From contig CAZDOC010000007.1 in assembly GCA_964506945.1 (NCBI GenBank), positions 1,284 to 65,283 of the forward strand: a DNA stretch of 64,000 bases, read 5' to 3'. The notes under the pieces are model-generated. The model was not told the DNA's origin and did not search any database. It saw only the letters and a list, made by a program, of their open reading frames with translations. This DNA is from an uncultured Gammaproteobacteria bacterium (GTDB lineage Bacteria > Pseudomonadota > Gammaproteobacteria > CAZDOC01). Shown one piece after another: positions 6,726 to 45,933 of this stretch (position 1 is its first letter; every line of letters begins with the position of its first letter). The position numbers were made by a program, and so were the translations under genes.

Positions 6726-8087
<1,362 letters not shown>

Positions 8088-26792: not shown

Positions 26793-28415
26793 TTGGAGTT
26801 CGAAAAGCGGACACCCGAAGAATCGGAAGGCGCCATCCTCGCGCACAGCCTGCCGCTGAAGAACCACAGGCTCAGGAAGGGTGCCGTTCTGACGGACGCG
26901 GATATCAGGGACCTGGTGGCGGAAGGATACGCGTTCATCAGGGTCGCCATTCCAGGGCAGGATGACATGGTCGAGGATGATGCCGCGCTCAGCCTGGCAA
27001 TGGCTCTCCAGGGGGAGCGGGTCAGGGTCGAACGGCCGTTGATGGGCAGATGTAATCTCTGGGCTGAGTCATACGGTTTGCTGGTGCTTGAGCACGATAT
27101 CCTGGATACCATAAATCTGGTGCATGAGTCGATGACGGTGGCGACCTTGAAACCCTTCGCCATCGTCAGTGATTCACAGTTGCTGGCTACCGTGAAGGCC
27201 ATACCCTATGCGGTTGCCACCGATGTGATCCGGAAGTGTCACGATATTCTGGCCCAACACCCTGCGGCCATACGTGTACGGCCCTTCCAGCGGTATTCGG
27301 TGGGTCTGATTCAGACGAGTCTGGGTACGCCCAAGGACGATTTGCTCGACAAGACCCGAACGGTTCTGAGTAACCGTCTCCACAATCTGAATAGCAGTAT
27401 CGGTTGGGAAGTCCGTTGCCAGCACGAAGAGGAAGCGCTTGTGTCGGCCATACACGAACTCAGGCAACAGGGCGTGGACATGATGGTGATATCGGGGGCC
27501 TCCGCGGTAGTGGATCGCCGTGACGTGATCCCTTCCGCCATTACTGCGGTGGGTGGCGCCGTACGGCATTACGGCATGCCGGTCGATCCCGGCAATCTGC
27601 TCCTGCTGGCCGGCGTGGATGATATCCCGGTGCTGGGCATGCCAGGCTGTGCGCGCTCGCCCAAGTACAATGGTTTCGATATGGTCCTGGAACGACTGAT
27701 TGCCGGCCTGGATGTCAGTGCGCGGGATATCATGTCCATGGGGGTTGGAGGGCTATTGAACGAGATCGGAACCCGCCCACAGCCACGGGTCACCACTCAT
27801 GCCGCTGCTGTCGCCAGCAAGGCAAGGAAGATTACGGCGTTGGTATTGGCCGCTGGCGAGTCGAAACGCATGGGGGATGACAACAAACTGTTGCTTGAGT
27901 TCGGGGGACGGCCCATGATTGCGCATACACTGGAAAACCTGGTGAACTCATGTATCGATGACATCCTGGTAATCACCGGCAAGGACGAGGACAGGATCCG
28001 GCTTGCCCTGGGTCAGTATGATCTCGAGTTCGTTCATAATGCCTGCTATGCGGATGGGATCAGCACATCGATCATCTGTGGCCTCAATCGTCTGGACGAT
28101 AACAGCGAGGCCGTACTGGTGGTACTGGGTGACATGCCGATGATCTCCAGTGAATGTCTGGAAAGACTGGTGACCAGCCTGGACCCAGAAGGTGGCTGTG
28201 AGATATGTGTGCCCGTCTACGATGGAAAATGGGGCAACCCGGTATTATGGTCCCGCAGGTTCTTTCAGGAAATGATGCACCTCGACGGAGATCATGGCGC
28301 CAGGCATCTGCTCTATAAGCATGCCGAGGTGGTAAAGGAGGTAGAGATGCCGGATGCGGGTGTGCTGATGGATTTCGATACCAGGGAATCCCTGTCAGAT
28401 CTTCAGCTTCAATAG
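26793..28415 (+). CDS. MoeA-like molybdopterin-binding domain fused to MocA/MobA-like nucleotidyltransferase
   Basis: GAILAHS...GRCNL...YGMPVDPGNLL...GMPGCARSP, followed by LVLAAGESKRMG..NKLL, LGDMP, GNPVLW, GDHGAR. TTG start. Confidence 0.88.
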   Translation: MEFEKRTPEESEGAILAHSLPLKNHRLRKGAVLTDADIRDLVAEGYAFIRVAIPGQDDMVEDDAALSLAMALQGERVRVERPLMGRCNLWAESYGLLVLEHDILDTINLVHESMTVATLKPFAIVSDSQLLATVKAIPYAVATDVIRKCHDILAQHPAAIRVRPFQRYSVGLIQTSLGTPKDDLLDKTRTVLSNRLHNLNSSIGWEVRCQHEEEALVSAIHELRQQGVDMMVISGASAVVDRRDVIPSAITAVGGAVRHYGMPVDPGNLLLLAGVDDIPVLGMPGCARSPKYNGFDMVLERLIAGLDVSARDIMSMGVGGLLNEIGTRPQPRVTTHAAAVASKARKITALVLAAGESKRMGDDNKLLLEFGGRPMIAHTLENLVNSCIDDILVITGKDEDRIRLALGQYDLEFVHNACYADGISTSIICGLNRLDDNSEAVLVVLGDMPMISSECLERLVTSLDPEGGCEICVPVYDGKWGNPVLWSRRFFQEMMHLDGDHGARHLLYKHAEVVKEVEMPDAGVLMDFDTRESLSDLQLQ

Positions 28416-29403: not shown

Positions 29404-29643
29404 GTGCACTCACAGACAAGAGGTCGAACCTTGCAGGTCAAGTAAAATCTTGCCGTTGGGCCTATTATGGAAATACAGAAATTCATGGCGGGCTCCCGGG
29501 GCCCGTAACACTCCGAGACACGCTGGCAGAGCGGATGCATCCTGGCGAAATGCGGTCACATGGAGCGGCCGTCAACGCAGCAGGTTTCCGTGCTGCCGCC
29601 TGGAATGCCCGTGCTATCCCGGCAAACCACGAGGGACAACAAA

Positions 29644-30732
29644 ATGAACGCTCTCACACAACCGAAAGTGGGTGTCATATTCAAATCATATGAGCCCATG
29701 GCATCGATGCGGAAGTACGCCATGCAGACGGAGGCCTCCGGTATGACGGGAGGGTTCTGGATAGCCGAGGCCTATCACTGGTTCCGTCAATACGGCCTGG
29801 AATCGCGCGGCTGCTTCGCCACCCTGGCCGCGGTCGCCCTGGCAACCCGGGATATTCCCGTGGGGCTGGGCATCACCTCCCCCTACATCAGGCACCCGAC
29901 GGCGCTGGCTTCCGAGGCCGCGGCCATCGACGAACTCTCCAATGGGCGGTTCATCATGGGGATCGGCGTAGGCAAGGTCGGTATCGAGTACCTTGAATAC
30001 GATATCGATGTACTCAGGCCGGTTCCGGTCCATCATGAATCCATGCAGATCATGCGCAAGGTATTCAGCGGCGAGCCTTTTGATTACAAAGGCAAGATTT
30101 TTGAATCCAGCATGCCTGGGTATGACCGTGCCGCGGCGGGTCTGCGCACCGATATCCCCATCTATGTCGGTGCGACGGGGCCGTTCATGCAACGTCTTTC
30201 AGGCCGGGAAAGTGATGGCATGCTTCTGGCCGGCCTGACCTCGCCTGCATTCGTGAAGTATGCCCGGGACAATATGCGGGCCGGTGCTGAAAAGGCCGGT
30301 CGCACCCTGCCGGAAGATTTCCCCGTGGGCGGCGTCATACTCTGCGCCTGTTCCAGGGATGGCGACAAGGCCCGGGACGCGACCCGTTCCTATACGGGAA
30401 CCTATATCGTCAACAAGATACGCAATATCAAAAACGATGTCATTCTTGCAGGATCCGGACTTCCCGACGAGGCCTGGGAACCCTTCCGCAAAGCCATCGC
30501 CGAGGGCACACAGGACCATGTGACGCACCTGGTCACCGATGAGATGATGCGCAGGTTCACGGTGATCTCGGGTACACCGGAGGATTGCCTGGAGATCACC
30601 CAGGAACTGGTGGATGCCGGGCTCAACCTGCCGTTGCTGGAGGTTGTCGGTGAAACGGAACAGGACAACCTGGAGACCATACGACTGATGGGTCAGGAAG
30701 TCGTACCCAATCTTGTCCCGGGCGTGAGATAG
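29644..30732 (+). CDS. Luciferase-like (LLM) oxidoreductase, Mer-like, probably F420-dependent
   Basis: FWIAEAY, GLGITSPYIRHP, DELSNGRFIMGIGVG, PIYVGATGP. Start at 29644 with GAGGG RBS. F420 use is inferred from context. Confidence 0.82.
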   Translation: MNALTQPKVGVIFKSYEPMASMRKYAMQTEASGMTGGFWIAEAYHWFRQYGLESRGCFATLAAVALATRDIPVGLGITSPYIRHPTALASEAAAIDELSNGRFIMGIGVGKVGIEYLEYDIDVLRPVPVHHESMQIMRKVFSGEPFDYKGKIFESSMPGYDRAAAGLRTDIPIYVGATGPFMQRLSGRESDGMLLAGLTSPAFVKYARDNMRAGAEKAGRTLPEDFPVGGVILCACSRDGDKARDATRSYTGTYIVNKIRNIKNDVILAGSGLPDEAWEPFRKAIAEGTQDHVTHLVTDEMMRRFTVISGTPEDCLEITQELVDAGLNLPLLEVVGETEQDNLETIRLMGQEVVPNLVPGVR

Positions 30733-33034: not shown

Positions 33035-35389
33035 ATGCACGACGTATACGAGGATATCCTCAGCAAGGCCGTATCGGATGGGCCGGTTTCCCATACGGAT
33101 GCCTTGCGCCTTGGCGAATGCCAGGACTTGCCGGCATTGATGCGGACTGCATCCCGCATCCGTGACCAGGGTCATGGCCCGATCGTGGGTTATTCCCCCA
33201 AGGTCTTCATTCCACTGACGAAGTTGTGTCGTGATGTCTGCCACTACTGTACCTTTGCCGAAGTGCCCGGAAGGGCGGGTCCCGCGTATCTGGATGCCGA
33301 TGAAGTCATGGCCATAGCCAGATCGGGTCTCGAGGCCGGATGTCACGAGGCCTTGTTCACCCTCGGCGACAAGCCGGAGTTGCGCTATGCGGCCGCGCGA
33401 CGCGAGTTGCGGGCACTGGGACACCGGACCACGCTTTCGTATCTGGCCGACATGGCCAGACTGGTGCTGAACGAGACCGGTCTGTTGCCCCATATCAATG
33501 CCGGGGTCATGGGCCGGGGGGATCTGCTCGCATTGAGAGCCGTTTCCCTGTCCCAGGGCCTGATGCTGGAAAACATCTCCTCGAGGCTATGCCTCAGGGG
33601 CGGCCCACATTTTGGATCCCCGGACAAGATCCCGGCGGCGCGTCTCAGTACCATCGCGGCTGCCGGTGGTGCTCGCGTGCCGTTCACCTCAGGGATCCTG
33701 ATAGGTATCGGGGAGACACGCAGAGAGCGTATCGAATCACTGCTGGCATTGCGGGATCTGAATGATACCGATGGCCATATCCAGGAGATCATCATCCAGA
33801 ATTTTCGCCGCAAGGCGGCGACTCTGATGCGGGATGCCCCGGAACCGGATATCGATGACATGCTCTGGACGGTTTGCATGGCGCGAATCATCTTCGGCGC
33901 GCGGATGAATATTCAGGTTCCACCCAACCTCATGCCTGAGGCCCTGCCGGCCCTCATCGATGCCGGTATCAATGACTGGGGCGGTATTTCACCGGTGACC
34001 CCGGATCATGTCAATCCCGAGGCGGCATGGCCACATCTGTCGCGACTGCGATCCGTCACTGAAGCCGCCGGAAAACAACTGACAGCCAGACTGCCGCTCT
34101 ATCCCTCCTATATCGAGCGTATGCACGAATGGGTGGACAGTGACCTTCATCGGCAGGTATTGCTGAGGATCGACGCCCTGGGTCATGCGCGTACCGATGA
34201 CTGGCATCCCGGAGATGGGCTGGCCGTCCCCCGGCTCAGACGACCCGGCGCGGTTACTGGCTCCGGCAGCAGACTCACTGGCGTGATCAGCAAGGCCATG
34301 GCGGGACAGAGGTTGAGCGAGGATGAGATCGTGGGGCTGTTCGCAAGCAGGGGGGGCGATCTCGAGGCGGTCTGCCGCGCCGCCGACGAGCTACGCATCG
34401 CTGTCAATGGCCAGGTCGTCAGTTATGTCGTCAATCGCAATATCAACTACACCAATATCTGTTATTTCGGTTGCCGGTTCTGCGCCTTCTCCAAGGGCCG
34501 GGTCAGCGAGAATCTGCGCGAACGCGGTTACAGGCTGGACCTGAAGGAGATCCAGAAACGTGTACTTGAGGCCTGGTCCGCCGGGGCAACGGAGGTCTGC
34601 CTGCAGGGGGGCATACACCCGGACTATACCGGTGAGACCTATCTCGCCATCGTCGATGCGATCAAGAAGGTACAGCCCAATATCCATGTGCATGCGTTCT
34701 CCCCCCTGGAGATCAGTCACGGCGCCGATACCCTGGGTCTGCCACTGAAGGCATATCTGCTGGAACTGCAGCAGGCGGGTCTGGCGAGTCTTCCCGGAAC
34801 GGCCGCGGAGATCCTGGACGACGAGGTTCGCGCCATCATATGCCCTGACAAACTGAATACCGGCGAATGGCTGAAGGTCATTAAAACGGCGCATGATATC
34901 GGCATGCCCACCACGGCGACGATCATGTTCGGGCATGTCGACACACCACGTCACTGGGCAAGGCATTTGTTGCTGATCCGTGATTTGCAGGCCGGGACCG
35001 GTGGCTTCACGGAGTTCGTGCCACTACCCTATATCCACATGCAGGCCCCGCTGAGTAAAAAGGGTCGTTCCAGGCCTGGCCCCACATACCGTGAGACGCT
35101 GTTGATGCATGCTGTCGCGCGTCTTGTCCTGCATACGGAAATCGGCAATATACAGGCGTCATGGGTGAAGCTGGGGCAGGAAGGGATCAAGGACTGCCTG
35201 GACGCCGGGGTAAACGATCTGGGTGGCACACTGATGAATGAGAGTATCAGTCGTGCGGCCGGTGCGGGTTTCGGGCAGGAATTCAGTGAAGCCGATCTCA
35301 GGTGTTTCATTCAGTCCTGTGGCAGGATGCCACAACAGCGGACGACACTTTATGGTGATGTGGCCGCCATAAGCAGTCGCAGTGCCTGA
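33035..35389 (+). CDS. fbiC: Bifunctional FO (7,8-didemethyl-8-hydroxy-5-deazariboflavin) synthase, CofG-CofH fusion
   Basis: CofG domain YSPKVFIPLTKLCRDVCHYC..QVPPNL..GINDWGGISP; CofH domain NRNINYTNICYFGCRFCAFSKG..EVCLQGG..TEFVPLP..GVNDLGGTLMNESISRAAG. Confidence 0.95.
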   Translation: MHDVYEDILSKAVSDGPVSHTDALRLGECQDLPALMRTASRIRDQGHGPIVGYSPKVFIPLTKLCRDVCHYCTFAEVPGRAGPAYLDADEVMAIARSGLEAGCHEALFTLGDKPELRYAAARRELRALGHRTTLSYLADMARLVLNETGLLPHINAGVMGRGDLLALRAVSLSQGLMLENISSRLCLRGGPHFGSPDKIPAARLSTIAAAGGARVPFTSGILIGIGETRRERIESLLALRDLNDTDGHIQEIIIQNFRRKAATLMRDAPEPDIDDMLWTVCMARIIFGARMNIQVPPNLMPEALPALIDAGINDWGGISPVTPDHVNPEAAWPHLSRLRSVTEAAGKQLTARLPLYPSYIERMHEWVDSDLHRQVLLRIDALGHARTDDWHPGDGLAVPRLRRPGAVTGSGSRLTGVISKAMAGQRLSEDEIVGLFASRGGDLEAVCRAADELRIAVNGQVVSYVVNRNINYTNICYFGCRFCAFSKGRVSENLRERGYRLDLKEIQKRVLEAWSAGATEVCLQGGIHPDYTGETYLAIVDAIKKVQPNIHVHAFSPLEISHGADTLGLPLKAYLLELQQAGLASLPGTAAEILDDEVRAIICPDKLNTGEWLKVIKTAHDIGMPTTATIMFGHVDTPRHWARHLLLIRDLQAGTGGFTEFVPLPYIHMQAPLSKKGRSRPGPTYRETLLMHAVARLVLHTEIGNIQASWVKLGQEGIKDCLDAGVNDLGGTLMNESISRAAGAGFGQEFSEADLRCFIQSCGRMPQQRTTLYGDVAAISSRSA

Positions 35390-39839: not shown

Positions 39840-40994
39840 ATGAGTGAATATATCAACCGTTTCCGGCCCAGCCAGGCTGAAATCGATCGCCGCTATGCCA
39901 ATACCCGCATGGCAATGGAACAGGCCGGACTCGATGCCTTGATCATCAGTGGCAGTGAATACAGTGGCTTCGAGGGTGCGGTCCGCTACATGTGCGGCTT
40001 TCTTGTCCTGCATCGTTATGCCTATGTCGTCATCCCGCTGGAAGGCGAGCCGGTGTGTGTGTTTCCGCGCGAGGCAACCTGGGTCGGCGATCACAGCGCC
40101 ACGTTTATCGAACGCAGGGAGTTTCCCGCCCATTGTGGTGAATGGATGGCTGGCTTCCTGAAAGAGAGGAAGATCAAACGGCTGGGGATCTACGGGCTGG
40201 AATACATCATCAATGTGCGTGACTATCGGGCCCTCGCGGCATGCGATTTCGAACTGATCGATTTTGAACGGCAATTCGATTATTCACGGGCGCAAAAAAG
40301 CGAGGAAGAACTCCGCTCGGTGCGGCATTCCATGGAGATCAACAAGGAAGGGGTCCTCGCGGTCATACGCTCATACCAGGCCGGCAGGACCGAGGCCGAG
40401 CTGATGGGGCTGGCGGAAGATGTCTTCGCACGCAGGGGATGTGCCAGGAACACCATGGACATGGTGCAGATGGGTCCGAACGGCTCCCTGGAGCCACAGA
40501 TGGTGTTTCCCAGTCAGAGACCCCTGCGTGACACGGATGGCATGATGTACGGGCTGGAAATTGCGGGAGAAGGGGGCCACTGGGTAGAATTCTCCCGGCC
40601 GCTGATGCCGGGAGGTATGGACCCCGTTACCCGGGAGATGATGTCCGCCTACCAGGAATTCCACGAACTGGCCAGGGAATACATGAAGGCGGGCAACCGT
40701 GTGGAAGACGTCGTCAATGCGTGCATGAAGCCGATCTACGACAGGGGTTACCGCTCGGGACATGTCTGCGGCCATTCCATCGGCATGACCATGATCGAGA
40801 TGCCCCGTATCGGTGAGGGTTTCGACTTCGTGCTGCCGGAGAATATGGTCTGTTCCATGCACCCGCATTTCATGAACCAGGAACGCACCCATTCCCTGTA
40901 TTTCCAGGAGACCTATCGTGTGGGCAAGGACGCCGGGGAACCCCTGTCAGGGGTGCCCATCAAGGCCTACGAAGGTGGAGAGACCCAGCTTTGA
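39840..40994 (+). CDS. M24 (creatinase/Xaa-Pro aminopeptidase fold) hydrolase
   Basis: N-terminal EIDRRY..AGLDALII domain, KSEEEL, GHVCGHSIG, LPENMVCSMHP, QETY. The 3' end overlaps the convergent MFS gene by 35 bp. Confidence 0.82.
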   Translation: MSEYINRFRPSQAEIDRRYANTRMAMEQAGLDALIISGSEYSGFEGAVRYMCGFLVLHRYAYVVIPLEGEPVCVFPREATWVGDHSATFIERREFPAHCGEWMAGFLKERKIKRLGIYGLEYIINVRDYRALAACDFELIDFERQFDYSRAQKSEEELRSVRHSMEINKEGVLAVIRSYQAGRTEAELMGLAEDVFARRGCARNTMDMVQMGPNGSLEPQMVFPSQRPLRDTDGMMYGLEIAGEGGHWVEFSRPLMPGGMDPVTREMMSAYQEFHELAREYMKAGNRVEDVVNACMKPIYDRGYRSGHVCGHSIGMTMIEMPRIGEGFDFVLPENMVCSMHPHFMNQERTHSLYFQETYRVGKDAGEPLSGVPIKAYEGGETQL

Positions 40995-42261
40995 GATGTT
41001 GTCGGCCGTTCACCTGTCGTAGTAATGGATAAGGGCCAAGCAGGGTGATCAGCATGGTGCCGATGACCGCGATGGCGGTCAATATCCAGAGCGCGCCGAT
41101 ATAGTTTCCCATATGGTCATAATAGATGCCGAGTATCGGCGGGCCGAAGGCCGAGCCGATCTGGAAGGCGGCGAACATGGTCCCATAGATCTGGCAAAAT
41201 GAACGAAGGCCAAAATAGCGGCTGCACAGGTAGGCAATTTCACTGATTTCCGATCCCGTGGCCAGGCCGACGAAGATCGCGGCGACGACGACCAGCTTGC
41301 CGGATGTGCCAAGCGCCAGGATGACGATGCCGGTGATCAGGAACAGCAGGAAGAATGCCGTGACATACGGGGCAAAGAAGTGATCCATCAGCAGCCCGCC
41401 CAGGATGCGCCCGGTGACCAGTCCCACACCCAGCAAGGACATGCACAGGGCGGCCTTGTCCGGGCTGATGCCACGGTCTGTCAGCATCGGCACCAGGTGC
41501 GCAAGGATACTGGTAATGGCGATGCCGACCAGCAGGAATGAGGTGAAGATCAGCCAGAAGCTTTTCGTCCTGAGGGCCTCCCGGGCAAGCAGGCCGGACG
41601 CGGATGAGGGCGCCGGCGATGCGATATTCGCCGGCATGTCTTCCAGGCCATCCGCCTGCAGGCCCATATCCCGGGGTCTTTCCCTGAACAGGAACAGGGT
41701 CATGGGCAGGGAGACACACAGGACCGTCAGGGCGAAACCGACATAGGCGGAGCGCCAGCCATAATGCTCGATCATGAACTGGGCAAAGGCCGGCACGAGG
41801 GTGGCGCCCACGCCAAAGCCGGACAGTGCGATACCCAGCGCCAGACCACGCCTGCGGTTGAACCAGTTGATGATCACCCGGGAGTAACTCTGTGGCAGGG
41901 TTCCGGCACCCAGGATCGGGATCAGCAGGAACATGGCATAGAATTGCCAGATATTGCCCGTCAGCAGGGCCATTGATGCCACCGTCAGGGCCATCATGAC
42001 GATCGAGGGGATGATGACGCGTCGCACCCCCAGCCTGTCGATCAGCAGCCCGATGCCTGGCGAGACAATGACCACCGCGATATTGGTCATGGTCAGCGCG
42101 AATGACATCTCACCGCGCTGCCAGCCAAATTCACTTTCCAGCGGTCTGACGAAGGTTCCAAAGGCGAAGACGGTGAACATGGCATAGCTGAGTGCCATGC
42201 CCACGAATGAAGTGAGTACGTTCCACCAGCCGAAAAATATGGGTCGTCCTGAATGTGGCAT
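40960..42261 (-). CDS. MFS transporter
   Basis: About 12 TM segments; GLLIDRLGVRR, WFNRRRGLALG, GRILGGLLMD. Confidence 0.9.
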   Translation of the reverse strand: MPHSGRPIFFGWWNVLTSFVGMALSYAMFTVFAFGTFVRPLESEFGWQRGEMSFALTMTNIAVVIVSPGIGLLIDRLGVRRVIIPSIVMMALTVASMALLTGNIWQFYAMFLLIPILGAGTLPQSYSRVIINWFNRRRGLALGIALSGFGVGATLVPAFAQFMIEHYGWRSAYVGFALTVLCVSLPMTLFLFRERPRDMGLQADGLEDMPANIASPAPSSASGLLAREALRTKSFWLIFTSFLLVGIAITSILAHLVPMLTDRGISPDKAALCMSLLGVGLVTGRILGGLLMDHFFAPYVTAFFLLFLITGIVILALGTSGKLVVVAAIFVGLATGSEISEIAYLCSRYFGLRSFCQIYGTMFAAFQIGSAFGPPILGIYYDHMGNYIGALWILTAIAVIGTMLITLLGPYPLLRQVNGRQHLKAGSLHLRRP

Positions 42262-42463: not shown

Positions 42464-43129
42464 ATGTCTGATGAGATACCGACAATCGCGATCCTGGGGG
42501 GCACCGGGAACCTGGGTCTTGCCCTGGCATGGCGTTGGGCCAGAGCCGGCTATCCCGTTTCCATTGGCTCACGTTCAGAGGAAAAGGCCAGGGACGCGGC
42601 AGACAGGCTCAATGAAAGAACCGGCCGGGACAATGTGAACGGCTGCAGTCATGCCGACGCCGTCCGCGATGCCGACATCGTCGTTCTGACCGTCCCCTAT
42701 GCGGCTCACGAGTCCACCCTGAAGACCATCAAGGCACATCTCTCGGGTCAGGTGCTGATCGACACCACCGTTCCCCTCAGGCCGCCCAGGGTGAGCGTCG
42801 TGCAATTGCCGGCAGAGGGCACGGTCGCGGTCCACACCCAGGAATACCTGGGGTCGGGCGCCCGCGTCGTTGCCGCATTTCACAATGTCGCCGCCAGTCT
42901 CCTCGACAAGGAGGGTGACATCGACTCTGATGTGCTGGTGACATCGGACGATGATGAGGCGAAGGCAGGGGTGATAGCGCTGGCGAAGGCCGCGGGATGC
43001 CATGCCCTGGATGCCGGGGCACTGGCCAATGCCATCGTTATGGAATCGCTCACCAGCCTGTTGATCCACTTGAACAGGACATACAAGAGCGGACATGCCG
43101 GGATCCGGATAACCGGCCTGAATGAGTGA
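42464..43129 (+). CDS. npdG: NADPH-dependent F420 reductase (F420H2:NADP+ oxidoreductase)
   Basis: IAILGGTGNLG, IGSRSEEKA, LTVPY, IDTTVPL, VVAAFHNVAA, ESLTSLLIHLNRTYK..AGIRITG. Start at 42464 (track gives 42407). Confidence 0.92.
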   Translation: MSDEIPTIAILGGTGNLGLALAWRWARAGYPVSIGSRSEEKARDAADRLNERTGRDNVNGCSHADAVRDADIVVLTVPYAAHESTLKTIKAHLSGQVLIDTTVPLRPPRVSVVQLPAEGTVAVHTQEYLGSGARVVAAFHNVAASLLDKEGDIDSDVLVTSDDDEAKAGVIALAKAAGCHALDAGALANAIVMESLTSLLIHLNRTYKSGHAGIRITGLNE

Positions 43130-43138
43130 GGGATGATG

Positions 43139-43319
43139 TTGTCGAGAATTCTGGAGCAAGCCCTGGATGGTCCATCGAGTCAATCGCGCTGTTGATCCGG
43201 CCTTCTCCTTCCGATTGATGCGGAATGGCTTGAAGTGTATGCCCCGGCATGTGGCCTGACCTCCTCCTGTGCGGACATGCACGCCCTCCATCCAGGGCTT
43301 GCTCCAGGATTCTGACAAT
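43139..43319. repeat. About 180-bp intergenic element bounded by ~31-bp imperfect inverted repeats (MITE-like or large stem-loop)
   Basis: TTGTCgAGAATtCTGGAGCAAGCCCTGGATGG (43139-43170) pairs with CCATCCAGGGCTTGCTCCAGgATTCTGACAA (43288-43318); the 20-bp core is perfect. Confidence 0.75.
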
Positions 43320-43373
43320 TGAACCCCGTCGGGATCGGCTATCCCCGGATCACATTTCCCCGGGCATCGGTTG

Positions 43374-44144
43374 TCAGGGCCGGAACAGGTCCTGGGATTT
43401 GTCCCGTAACAGGCACCGTGCTCCCTGTCCTGATGGTGAGACGGGATAACCCCGGATCAGAACGACGGGTGTTGCCTCGTCGGCCTCCCCCATCATCAGG
43501 CAGGCCGCAGCGGCGAGAGCGTCGGCATCCGCGGTCTCGCTGACCAGTAACCGGCGGTCATACATGTCATGCCGGCCCCGCAGGTCGCGCAGGGTCTGAA
43601 AGCCGGCCGCGCCGATGGCGACACCGACACTGCCCAGGCGCCAGGGACGGCCGATACTGTCGGTAACGAGGATCCCGACCTGTTTGCCGGTGATGCGCAG
43701 CAGCGATTCCCGCAGGGCCCTGGCCGAGGCATCCGGGTCCCTGGGTAGCAGCAGGACCCGTTCACCGCCATCATCGGCATTACCGATATTGGAATGATCG
43801 ATGCCTGCATTCGCCAGTATGACACCGCTGTTGTGTTCGACGATGATGAGTCCGGGTCTGAGGGCGATGATCTCCCGTGACTCCGCCAGCACCAGTTCAA
43901 TCAGCCTGGGATCCTTGTCGACCTTATGGGCCAGTTCCCGCGCCTGCCGTGAAGGGGTGACCGATGCCAGTTCGACAAAACGGTCCTCGGCCTTGGATAC
44001 GATCTTCTGTGCCAGGCAGAGAATATCGCCATCATGCAAGGCATTGCCTGATGCGGTCAGCGCCTGCGCCATGATCCGCGCCAGATCCACACCGGCCTCG
44101 ATGACGGGTATGCCCGGGATGGTGATGACTTGTAGTGTATCCAA
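43374..44144 (-). CDS. cofE: Coenzyme F420-0:L-glutamate ligase (standalone, no nitroreductase domain)
   Basis: AQKIVSKAEDR, ANAGIDHSN, LLPRDPDASA, VTDSIGRPWRLG, ADALAAAA, GEADEATPVVLIRG. Likely TTG start at 44144 (track gives 44348). Confidence 0.93.
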   Translation of the reverse strand: MDTLQVITIPGIPVIEAGVDLARIMAQALTASGNALHDGDILCLAQKIVSKAEDRFVELASVTPSRQARELAHKVDKDPRLIELVLAESREIIALRPGLIIVEHNSGVILANAGIDHSNIGNADDGGERVLLLPRDPDASARALRESLLRITGKQVGILVTDSIGRPWRLGSVGVAIGAAGFQTLRDLRGRHDMYDRRLLVSETADADALAAAACLMMGEADEATPVVLIRGYPVSPSGQGARCLLRDKSQDLFRP

Positions 44145-44315
44145 AGGCTGTGTCTCGTGCGCACCATGTTGCGGGAGCTGGATCGACCAACAGGTCTCGT
44201 GCAAGACCCCCGACAGGAGGATCCTTTTCGGTCCATTGTCAGGGGCATCCCGGGGCCGAGATCCCGGCCCCGGCCATTCTAGCGGAGAACCCTGATTGAT
44301 GACACACTGTCCAGC

Positions 44316-45296
44316 ATGATCACTCTGGGAAAGATCCAGCCAAAACACCTGGTCCTGTCCGGCGGTGTCGGCGGTGCCAAACTGGTCCTGGGCCTGTCAC
44401 ATGCGCTGCCACCCGAGAGCCTGCATGTCGTGGTCAATAGCGCCGATGATTTCGTCCACCAGGGCCTTTATGTCTGCCCGGATATCGATACCCTGATCTA
44501 TACGCTCGCGGGCCTGAACAACAGGGAACTGGGCTGGGGGCGCGCGGACGAAACCTGGAACTATATGCAGGCCTGTGAAGAACTGGGCCTGGAACACTGG
44601 TTCAGGCTCGGTGACAAGGACCTTGCCCTGCATGTCCACCGTACCCGGCAGCTGGCACAGGGTGCCGCGCTCTCCGGGGTCGTGGATGATCTGTGCACAC
44701 GTTTCGGTATCACCGTGAAGCTGATGCCCATGAGTGACGACCCCGTGCGGACCTTCGTGGAGAGCGGGGCGGGCAGGCTTGCCTTCCAGGAATATTTCGT
44801 CAAGCATGCTTGTGAACCGGTGGTGCATGATATCGTCTTCGATGGTGCTGAGACGGCCAGACCCTGTGCCGGGATCCCCGCCATACTGGAAGACCCCGGG
44901 CTTCAGGCGGTCATAATCGCGCCCTCCAATCCGTTCCTCAGCATCCGGCCGATCCTCTCCTGTGGTGGTCTCCAGAAGACCTTGTCCCGCACACGGGCAC
45001 CCTGTGTCGTCGTCTCACCCATCGTACAGGGGCAGGCGCTGAAAGGCCCCACCGCAAAACTGATGCGGGAACTGGGTCTGGATTGTGATGTGCCGGCGAT
45101 AGCCGGTCTGTATGCCGATATCGCCGACGGCATCGTCATCGATGCCCGGGATGCAGGCCATGTCGCGGCTATCGAGGCACGGGGGCTGCGCGTCATGACC
45201 ACGGACATCATCATGCAATCCCTGCGGGACCGCATCAGGCTGGCGCGGGAGGTCGTCGGGTTCGCCCGCACCCTGTGGGCGGGAGAGGACGACTGA
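44316..45296 (+). CDS. cofD: 2-phospho-L-lactate transferase (CofD/FbiA)
   Basis: LSGGVGGAKL, NSADDF, PDIDTLIYTL, WFRLGDKD, FQEYFVK, PSNPFLSI, VSPIVQGQALKGP. Confidence 0.95.
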   Translation: MITLGKIQPKHLVLSGGVGGAKLVLGLSHALPPESLHVVVNSADDFVHQGLYVCPDIDTLIYTLAGLNNRELGWGRADETWNYMQACEELGLEHWFRLGDKDLALHVHRTRQLAQGAALSGVVDDLCTRFGITVKLMPMSDDPVRTFVESGAGRLAFQEYFVKHACEPVVHDIVFDGAETARPCAGIPAILEDPGLQAVIIAPSNPFLSIRPILSCGGLQKTLSRTRAPCVVVSPIVQGQALKGPTAKLMRELGLDCDVPAIAGLYADIADGIVIDARDAGHVAAIEARGLRVMTTDIIMQSLRDRIRLAREVVGFARTLWAGEDD

Positions 45297-45297
45297 G

Positions 45298-45933
45298 ATG
45301 TGGGTCATCGTACCGGTCAAGAGACTTCGCAACTGCAAACGCCGGCTGTCCACCGTCCTCGATACCGGGCAGCGCGCACGGTTCAGCCGCCTGCTCCTGC
45401 TCGATGTCCTGTCGGCCCTGGCGGCCCCTGCGGGTGTCCAGGGCATCACCCTGGTCAGCAGTGATCCCGGACTGGCCGGCGTGGCGCGGAACTGTCAGGC
45501 GGATCTCCTGTTGCTGGAGAAGGATTCCGGTTATTCAGAGGATGTCCTGCTGGCCATAGGGCGCCTGGGCCGGGACGAGAGGGAACGGATCGCCATCATT
45601 CCGTCCGATGTCCCGCGGATATCACCTGCCGAGGTAGCGGGTCTCTGCCGCTCACCGCGCGGCGGTATCACGCTCTGCCCGGCCCACCGGGACGCAGGAA
45701 CCAATGCCCTGGTCTTTACCTCCCCGCTCACGATACCGCTGTTGTTTGGCAAGGACAGTTTCTACCGGCACCGGCAGGCGGCCATCCGTGACGGCCTCGA
45801 GGTCCAGGTCATGGACCTGCCGGGACTGGCGCGTGATATCGATCGCCCGGAGGACCTTCTCTGGCTGGCCTCGCAGGCAGGCGGGGGACTGGCATGGTCC
45901 TATCTCAGGGAGGAACTCCGTATCGCCTGTTGA
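45298..45933 (+). CDS. cofC: 2-phospho-L-lactate/PEP guanylyltransferase (CofC/FbiD)
   Basis: VIVPVK..CKRRLS, PSDVP, GTNAL, FGKDSF..H, DIDRPEDL. Confidence 0.92.
   Translation: MWVIVPVKRLRNCKRRLSTVLDTGQRARFSRLLLLDVLSALAAPAGVQGITLVSSDPGLAGVARNCQADLLLLEKDSGYSEDVLLAIGRLGRDERERIAIIPSDVPRISPAEVAGLCRSPRGGITLCPAHRDAGTNALVFTSPLTIPLLFGKDSFYRHRQAAIRDGLEVQVMDLPGLARDIDRPEDLLWLASQAGGGLAWSYLREELRIAC

Follow-up and report, generated by a model that had tools for sequence, protein, structure and literature searches.

How does a Gram-negative bacterium complete the side chain of cofactor F420 when its genome appears to hold neither an FbiB C-terminal domain nor a stand-alone FbiE, the known dehydro-F420 reductases; is a three-carbon acid used that needs no reduction, or is the reduction left to an enzyme of another kind? 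The question arose from an earlier note on a 64,000-nucleotide stretch of DNA from an uncultured gammaproteobacterium (hereafter the window), which had pointed out npdG, cofE, cofD and cofC and had offered three options: use of 2-phospholactate (2-PL), use of 3-phosphoglycerate (3-PG), or a reductase encoded at an unlinked site. We have examined these options in the window and in the whole draft genome (2.66 Mb, 92 contigs, 96.95% complete). The four genes are where the note had placed them and, together with fbiC, make up a complete F420 gene set in which every member scores above its curated NCBIfam cut-off. The features of interest are as follows.

29560..30732, plus strand: Mer-like luciferase-like (LLM) oxidoreductase, probable F420 user (PF00296, 175 bits)
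33035..35389, plus strand: fbiC, fused CofG/CofH FO synthase, 784 aa (NF006687, 1094.9 bits; cut-off 1018)
40960..42261, minus strand: MFS monocarboxylate-type transporter, divergent from npdG (PF07690)
42464..43129, plus strand: npdG/fno, NADPH-dependent F420 reductase recycling F420H2 (TIGR01915, 199.9 bits; cut-off 149.8; PF03807)
43374..44144, minus strand: cofE, stand-alone F420-0:gamma-glutamyl ligase (TIGR01916, 265 bits; cut-off 180.65)
44316..45296, plus strand: cofD, (2-phospholactyl/enolpyruvyl) transferase to FO (TIGR01819, 290 bits; cut-off 257.45)
45298..45933, plus strand: cofC, guanylyltransferase activating the C3 acid (TIGR03552, 130.5 bits; cut-off 105)

The fbiC gene, which the earlier note does not mention, is the sole FO synthase gene of the genome; it lies 7 kb upstream of the npdG-cofE-cofD-cofC block, and its TIGR03550 and TIGR03551 matches both exceed their cut-offs. 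A single nucleotide separates cofD from cofC, and cofE runs on the opposite strand, divergent from the pair, as had been described. Linkage of npdG to cofC, cofD or cofE recurs in most of the proteobacterial and acidobacterial loci compared. The genome has just two LLM genes, both on the window's contig, and the one listed above finds its top NCBIfam matches exclusively among F420-dependent LLM classes (TIGR03555, 168 bits, under the cut-off). The neighboring MFS transporter gene finds its best NCBIfam match in the L-lactate transporter model NF049980, at 169.5 bits and thus below the cut-off of 320, and is kept in a related locus (L011), where it is syntenic and 68% identical. Predicted promoters and terminators were no more numerous across the locus than in shuffled sequence.

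Could the reductase be hidden in cofE itself, as it is in FbiB? The longest open reading frame of cofE starts at a GTG at 44348 and would encode 324 aa, and in-frame TTG codons at 44204 and 44144 would give 276 or 256 aa. Because the long frame would overlap the start of cofD, and because its TIGR01916 match begins only at residue 73, a protein of about 256 aa is a reasonable assignment. PF01996 is the sole Pfam domain and is followed by approximately 24 residues, so there is no nitroreductase domain, in agreement with the earlier note. The FbiB-type model PRK13294, with a cut-off of 304, reaches 208.7 and aligns through its ligase half alone; the closest solved structures are those of stand-alone CofE proteins (2G9I, 2PHN and 7ULD). 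For cofD, the Methanosarcina mazei CofD structure 3C3D (184.8 bits) outscores Mycobacterium smegmatis FbiA (6UVX, 158.4 bits), and in PDB comparisons archaeal or Gram-negative structures give CofE, CofD and CofC each a better score than do the mycobacterial proteins of the phosphoenolpyruvate (PEP) pathway. As a guide to substrate choice, this likeness to archaeal proteins is a weak pointer, and the FbiA structure paper (PMC7253369) defines no CofD residues that tell LPPG from EPPG.

The search was then a matter of the whole genome, which we covered with six-frame searches for TIGR03553, the model of the FbiB C-terminal domain, and for PF00881, and with tblastn of a stand-alone Chloroflexi FbiE. 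Exactly one nitroreductase-fold (PF00881) gene is present, on contig C1, so the window holds none, as the earlier note had observed. The best TIGR03553 scores in the genome are 22–29 bits, compared with 142.8 bits over the full length for the positive control, the stand-alone FbiE at 7253-7996 of Chloroflexi locus L016; tblastn with that FbiE gave no convincing match in the genome (best E-value 0.045). The FDOR family PF12900 has no match in the genome, and neither does PF04075, whose control likewise matched no genome, so that the PF04075 negative carries no weight. By the earlier note's own account, its idea would fall if such a reductase were encoded at another site and canonical PEP-derived F420 were the sole product; no homologue of a known dehydro-F420 reductase, whether FbiB C-terminal domain or FbiE, was found in this 96.95%-complete genome.

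Might the C1 protein nonetheless moonlight as the reductase? The genome encodes no other protein with the FMN nitroreductase fold, and homologues occur in five of the seven other proteobacterial cofC-bearing genomes sampled. Its 29 bits on TIGR03553, however, cover the N-terminal 60 residues only, its PDB matches at E <= 1e-3 include no FbiB C-terminal structure, and the protein is instead NfnB-like (3GR3, 200 bits). Across 401 genomes of the phylum the family does not track cofC: it is found in 130, mostly lacking cofC, and the closest relatives (58–63% identity) come from cofC-less genomes. Two complete cofC-bearing genomes do without it, and the C1 gene lies apart from all F420 genes. We consider such a second role for the C1 protein quite unlikely. 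Even less credit can be given to the idea that an FbiE gene exists and fell into an assembly gap. The draft state of the genome, with about 3% missing, leaves room for such a loss, but closed or near-closed cofC-bearing relatives are also devoid of FbiE (G099, in 2 contigs; G226 and G206, each in 1 contig; and the chromosome OY970199), and we regard a missed gene as the least probable of the explanations weighed here.

The wider sample gives the same picture. Thirteen other genomes with cofC, 11 of them proteobacterial and 2 acidobacterial, yielded no FbiE orthologue: in ten the best scores in the FbiE-type search were 29–63 bits, and in the two acidobacterial genomes and one from the Caulobacteraceae nothing matched at E <= 1e-8. 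Both Chloroflexi positive controls yielded FbiE at 143–147 bits. Among the sampled Proteobacteria and Acidobacteria, absence of FbiE is thus the rule, and the suggestion implicit in the earlier note that this organism is peculiar does not hold, since every other Gram-negative F420 genome sampled lacks the gene as well.

If no reductase is present, dehydro-F420 could itself be the working cofactor, with PEP used and the enolpyruvyl group left as it is. The empty reductase search fits this reading, dehydro-F420 is reported to have the same redox properties as F420 (PMC7253369), and dehydro-F420-0 is accepted by FbiB for glutamate addition in vitro (Bashiri 2019). The phosphoenol bond, however, is reported to make dehydro-F420 less stable. 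Ney, in 2017, is said to have found F420 in the Gram-negative producers examined so far, which also counts against the idea, and we judge it improbable.

The 3-PG route dispenses with the reduction step too, and here the residues of CofC are informative. Ser162 of the Mycetohabitans enzyme is diagnostic for 3-PG use; all Mrhiz-CofC variants at this position other than S162T lost the 3-PG preference, and both this Ser and a His at the H145 position were needed to convert Msmeg FbiD (Hasan et al. 2022, PMC8764529). We aligned the window CofC to 7P97, 2I5E and 6BWG, computed column statistics over 150 family representatives and built a tree. The earlier note had suggested that Gly rather than Ser at this site argues against a 3-PG preference, and the alignments to 7P97 and 6BWG bear the suggestion out (PMC8764529): Gly151 falls in the Ser162 column, as Gly does in 149 of the 150 representatives, and Ala133 sits at the His145 position. 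With no Ser or Thr at the first site and no His at the second, the window CofC is, by its residues, not of the 3-PG type. Its FGKDSF motif (residues 150-155) shares the FGxDS pattern of M. tuberculosis FbiD (FGPDS; G163/S166), and this pattern together with Gly151 makes 3PG-F420 unlikely. The 3-PG enzyme 7P97 is in fact the best PDB match of the window CofC (73 bits, with the other two at 66 and 47), but the window clade stands apart from the 7P97 clade in the tree, and production of 3PG-F420 in the manner of Mycetohabitans appears very unlikely.

The hallmarks of CofC/FbiD proteins, namely three Mg-binding Asp residues, the Lys of an N-terminal VK motif, GTN and a carboxylate-binding Ser, are all kept when compared with 6BWG, 7P97 and the 150 representatives (K8, D104, T135-N136, S154 and a DID motif). 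The position equivalent to Mtb FbiD L92 and Mrhiz M91 is occupied by Tyr79. The gammaproteobacterial clade to which the window CofC belongs, at most 52% identical to any cluster representative, bears Tyr or His at this position, with Ser or Ala replacing the next Asn; the Tyr or His is the one distinctive trait of the locus and counts as a point against 2-PL. We considered Tyr79 as a unique change indicative of a new substrate and rejected it: the column is variable family-wide (L in 61, Y in 19 and H in 15 of the 150 representatives), so the residue is better regarded as a clade marker. There is a slim chance that CofC of this clade and its cognate CofD select a C3 or related acid other than 2-PL, PEP or 3-PG, which, if true, would mean a further, reductase-free variant of the F420 side chain.

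Of the options raised at the outset, then, the evidence disfavors both 3-PG and a nitroreductase-type enzyme encoded at an unlinked site, and what stands is 2-PL or a reductase of another family. Our tentative first choice is a canonical F420 pathway of the Gram-negative type with a lactyl-type product, most likely made directly from 2-phospho-L-lactate. FbiC would make FO, CofC of the common Gly type would activate 2-PL or PEP, and CofD, presumably translationally coupled to CofC, would attach the C3 acid; the stand-alone, archaeal-type CofE would add the glutamates, and NpdG (Fno) would keep F420 in its reduced form for use by the contig's two luciferase-like oxidoreductases. Were 2-phospho-L-lactate used directly, as in methanogens, no reduction step would be needed and the product would be lactyl-type F420. 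In vitro, the CofC proteins of Paracoccus and Oligotropha used 2-PL best, with PEP at 3.5–30% (PMC8764529), which supports this reading. Those assays employed an archaeal CofD, however, and the authors state a bias towards 2-PL and stress the need to pair CofC with its cognate CofD (PMC8764529). Additionally, most bacteria are not believed to be rich in 2-PL (PMC7253369), and CofB, the enzyme that makes it, is known in no organism.

A possible but less probable course is that CofC and CofD make dehydro-F420-0 from PEP and that an enzyme outside the nitroreductase family reduces the enolpyruvyl group. PEP is abundant, whereas the source of 2-PL is obscure; the PEP contacts of Mtb FbiD are retained except L92 (the residues named above, with G151 and the DxD motif); and the cognate CofC/CofD pair of Ca. 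Entotheonella, which shifted towards PEP, speaks for this route as much as against 2-PL (PMC8764529). Just such an enzyme was postulated for archaea and some bacteria by Bashiri 2019, who gave the missing step the hypothetical enzyme name "CofX". But no such enzyme is described in the literature searched up to 2026, and when all open reading frames from 23 related cofC loci and the window were clustered, no conserved neighbor of the F420 genes emerged as a candidate for CofX or CofB. Next to the F420 genes, npdG, fbiC or cofH and LLM genes recurred, along with generic paralogues of the ABC, MFS and acyl-CoA dehydrogenase families. In the clustering, the ABC ATPases, the MFS transporters, the radical-SAM genes (cofG/H) and the acyl-CoA dehydrogenases came up mostly within Acidobacteria, and they were rejected for either role. 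On balance, direct, archaea-like use of 2-PL is slightly favored over PEP combined with a reductase of another type.

How does this locus compare with the F420 systems already described? The clusters of Paracoccus denitrificans and Oligotropha carboxidovorans, as described in Hasan 2022 and reportedly in Ney 2017, have the same five genes as the window, including a fused FbiC, a stand-alone CofE, a Gly-type CofC and a linked Fno, with nearby LLM genes and no FbiE. Unlike them, the window has its genes in two blocks 7 kb apart within a catabolic-looking island, with cofE divergent from cofDC and a CofC from its own gammaproteobacterial clade with Tyr/His at the Mtb-L92 position. The archaeal 2-PL pathway of Methanocaldococcus and Methanosarcina shares the stand-alone CofE, the lack of a reductase, and the CofD and CofE structural affinities noted above (CofD nearer the archaeal structure than FbiA, CofE matching stand-alone CofE structures only), but its FO synthase is CofG plus CofH rather than a fused bacterial FbiC. 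With the mycobacterial PEP pathway (FbiD, FbiA and FbiB) the window shares the FGxDS motif and the three Mg-binding Asp residues of CofC; unlike that pathway, the genome has no FbiB C-terminal nitroreductase domain, and pocket Leu92 is replaced by Tyr. The Thermomicrobia/Chloroflexi pathway, reported in Braga 2020, likewise has a stand-alone CofE; unlike in this genome, an FbiE gene lies next to cofE or close by in Chloroflexi loci L016 and L019 (143–147 bits on TIGR03553). Mycetohabitans, the 3PG-F420 producer, is also proteobacterial with a stand-alone CofE and no reductase, and differs in having Ser162 and His145 where the window CofC has Gly and Ala, and in lacking Fno.

The organism is thus another example of a gap that the literature already describes, and no new mechanism is revealed. 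The gap concerns completion of the F420 side chain in Gram-negative bacteria that have neither the FbiB C-terminal domain nor FbiE, and Braga 2019 describes the F420 structure of most such Gram-negative organisms as not known. What this nearly complete genome offers, with its 2.66 Mb, one nitroreductase-fold gene and no candidate F420-dependent enzymes of the LLM class beyond two, is an unusually small search space for a reductase or a lactate kinase. Additionally, the survey of FbiE absence is of use for the annotation of F420 clusters and for the choice of genes in heterologous F420 production.

The F420 genes of the window (G000:C7:1284-65283), called from an ORF listing and profile searches, include npdG, cofE, cofD and cofC as the earlier note had described them, all four above curated cut-offs. 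The same window also holds fbiC, a gene that the note left unmentioned, so the F420 gene set is complete.

33035-35389, plus strand: fbiC (FO synthase), 784 aa; NF006687, 1094.9 bits
42464-43129, plus strand: npdG (Fno); TIGR01915, 199.9 bits
end at 43374, minus strand: cofE (glutamyl ligase); TIGR01916, 265 bits
44316-45296, plus strand: cofD (transferase to FO); TIGR01819, 290 bits
45298-45933, plus strand: cofC (guanylyltransferase); TIGR03552, 130.5 bits

Where does cofE begin? The longest ORF, from a GTG at 44348, would run over the cofD start; the profile aligns from its residue 73 onwards. Two TTG codons in the same frame, at 44204 and 44144, would give proteins of 276 and 256 aa. A sigma-70-like site upstream of these internal starts (GTGTCA-18-TAGAAT, 44276-44305, minus strand) fits a short cofE, the locus holding no more sites of this kind than expected from shuffling. 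PF01996 is the sole Pfam domain of CofE and ends about 24 residues ahead of the stop, so the enzyme carries no fused nitroreductase domain and is stand-alone, as the note had it. The 244 bp separating the convergent cofE and npdG ends contain no ORF.

Is a dehydro-F420 reductase, needed for PEP-derived F420, encoded elsewhere? A six-frame search with PF00881 returned one nitroreductase-fold gene in the genome, outside the window, which is free of such genes as previously claimed.

G000:C1:13413-14075 (= L002:1423-2088), minus strand: NfnB-like nitroreductase-fold protein, 221 aa, on another contig

On TIGR03553, the FbiB C-terminal model, this protein scores 22-29 bits, covering only about its first 60 residues. 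As a yardstick, the stand-alone FbiE of a Roseiflexaceae locus (L016:7253-7996, plus strand, directly after cofE) reaches 142.8 bits across the full length of the model, and together with a second Chloroflexi FbiE (L019:6275-6790, plus strand, about 270 bp downstream of cofE) it spans 143-147 bits. Whereas these loci carry FbiE near cofE, the window's genome lacks it: a tblastn search with the L016 protein gave a best E of 0.045. The NfnB-like protein has 3GR3 (200 bits), 7DP0 and 2WZV as its best solved relatives, and FbiB C-terminal structures are absent from its PDB matches at E <= 1e-3. Of 401 genomes sampled from the phylum, 130 carry a homologue of it; the closest (58-63% identity) belong to small genomes of another family without cofC, and two complete cofC-bearing genomes, G099 and G226, have none. 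Taken together, these searches point to no linked or unlinked reductase of known kind; the earlier note had left room for a dedicated one elsewhere in the genome, and genome-wide none was found. That this sole nitroreductase-fold protein moonlights as the reductase seems improbable, and in an assembly of 2.66 Mb (92 contigs, 96.95% complete, 0.46% contaminated) there is only the slimmest chance that a reductase gene was missed.

FbiE absence is the rule among the Gram-negative F420 clusters sampled and is not unusual in this organism, as a survey of cofC genomes against Chloroflexi controls makes clear. In an even sample of the phylum, cofC exceeded its cut-off in 8 of 401 genomes, the source genome included; best TIGR03553 scores were 29-63 bits in the seven others and in the genomes that contribute loci L012, L015 and L030, compared with 143 and 147 bits in two Chloroflexi genomes. 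Full-length matches of 48-63 bits probably represent other nitroreductase subfamilies such as BluB, with the caveat that the true FbiE of L016 also reaches 67 bits against the BluB model. Two Acidobacteriaceae genomes (one a closed chromosome) and one Caulobacteraceae genome gave no TIGR03553 match at E <= 1e-8.

Does another gene take the place of FbiE? When ORFs of the window and of 23 related loci were clustered, no conserved unknown gene accompanied the FbiE-less clusters; the recurring neighbours, largely from one acidobacterial lineage, were only npdG, FO-synthase genes, LLMs (luciferase-like oxidoreductases) and generic paralogues of the ABC, MFS and acyl-CoA dehydrogenase types. An acyl-CoA dehydrogenase gene (C7:65890-66981, minus strand) and an LLM-class gene (G000:C7:70579-71463, plus strand) lie just beyond the window end, the latter being one of only two LLM genes in the genome, both on this contig. 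Paralogues of the acyl-CoA dehydrogenase are found close to cofD in acidobacterial loci as well as in L015 and L028, a proximity that is probably coincidental because identity is just 27-30%.

The choice of C3 acid bears on whether a reductase is needed at all. In Mycetohabitans CofC, Ser162 is diagnostic for 3-phosphoglycerate (3-PG), with His145, Met91 and Cys95 as modifiers, and G169S plus T152H converted M. smegmatis FbiD (Hasan et al. 2022, PMC8764529). Window CofC was aligned to PDB 7P97, 6BWG and 2I5E with HMMER and to relatives with MAFFT, which maps Gly151 to Ser162, Ala133 to His145, Tyr79 to Met91 (Mtb Leu92), Val83 to Cys95, and Ser154 to the carboxylate-binding Ser165/166; the FGKDS motif matches FGPDS of Mtb FbiD. 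Of 150 cluster representatives, 149 have Gly at the Ser162 column, and all keep Ser165. These residues make 3PG-F420 an unlikely product, bearing out the note's statement that Gly argues against 3-PG, and we consider the 3-PG route very improbable. Residues 78-83 read G-[YH]-[SAG]-x-D in the window's clade, as against G-L-N-x-A in most CofC/FbiD, and all clade members have Tyr or His at the Mtb FbiD pocket position Leu92. We rejected this as a sign of a new substrate, since this position differs across the family (L 61, Y 19, H 15, I 12, others, among the 150) and is thus a clade marker.

That clade has 12 members (SH-aLRT 98, maximum-likelihood tree) and stands apart from the Mycetohabitans 3-PG clade and Xanthobacteraceae clades. 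Among 1.84 billion cluster representatives the top match to window CofC is just 52% identical, and in one-genome-per-species GTDB the nearest loci are Gammaproteobacteria MAGs at 41-50% identity. One of these, L011, has the order MFS(-), npdG, cofE(-), cofD, cofC, CoxG-fused Mo-hydroxylase large subunit(-), then small and medium subunits, with identities of 50-74%. Elsewhere the CofC frame continues without a stop into CofE (Mesorhizobium quangtriensis, L032:10001-11344, plus strand) or continues into FbiC (a Burkholderiales MAG, L013:1929-4007, plus strand), both apparent fusions.

The F420 genes appear to sit inside an island of catabolic appearance:

AraC regulator
29560-30732: Mer-like LLM oxidoreductase
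FAH-family hydrolase and M20 deacylase, then fbiC
cyclase; isopropylmalate/homocitrate-synthase-like enzyme; two PanE-like reductases; M24 hydrolase
40960-42261, minus strand: MFS monocarboxylate-type transporter, divergent from npdG
downstream of cofC: xanthine-oxidase-family molybdoenzymes

Additionally, a 540-aa protein (26793-28415, plus strand) ends in a MobA-like nucleotidyltransferase domain, while its N-terminal half, about 340 aa, has no assignment; as a neighbour of the Mo hydroxylases, it probably takes part in maturing their molybdenum cofactor.

Sequence is insufficient to choose between 2-phospholactate (2-PL) and PEP: CofC assays do not separate them, the cognate CofD being the filter (Hasan et al. 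2022, PMC8764529), and the FbiA structure paper (PMC7253369) defines no discriminating CofD residues. We tentatively favour a 2-PL route, to which several features point weakly. CofD scores 185 bits against M. mazei CofD versus 158 against M. smegmatis FbiA, CofC scores 66 bits against M. mazei CofC versus 47 against Mtb FbiD, and CofE matches only stand-alone F420 glutamyl ligase (CofE) entries in the PDB. Proteobacterial CofCs used 2-PL best in vitro; however, that preference was measured with archaeal CofD, biasing the assay, and the cognate Ca. Entotheonella pair shifted towards PEP (Hasan et al. 2022, PMC8764529). The MFS transporter, whose adjacency to npdG is kept in L011 (68% identity), has the L-lactate transporter SfMCT as its top NCBIfam model at 169.5 bits, under the cut-off of 320; speculatively, it may carry lactate for 2-PL, and a substrate of the island is just as plausible a cargo. 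Against 2-PL, no enzyme forming it is known anywhere. PEP combined with a reductase of some other protein family is a somewhat less likely alternative, dehydro-F420 as end product is unlikely, and a further, undescribed side-chain variant, estimated separately, is a small chance. Of the note's three options (2-PL, 3-PG or an unlinked reductase), the evidence speaks against 3-PG, given Gly151, and against a reductase of the nitroreductase type, which leaves 2-PL or a reductase of another family.

The missing reduction step is a gap already in the literature: a hypothetical 'CofX' has been drawn for archaea and some bacteria (Bashiri et al. 2019), the exact F420 structure in most Gram-negative bacteria has been stated as unknown (Braga et al. 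2019), and metabolic backgrounds without 2-PL or without reductase have been discussed (Hasan et al. 2022, PMC8764529). The window is one more example, and its small genome is a convenient place to seek the missing enzyme.
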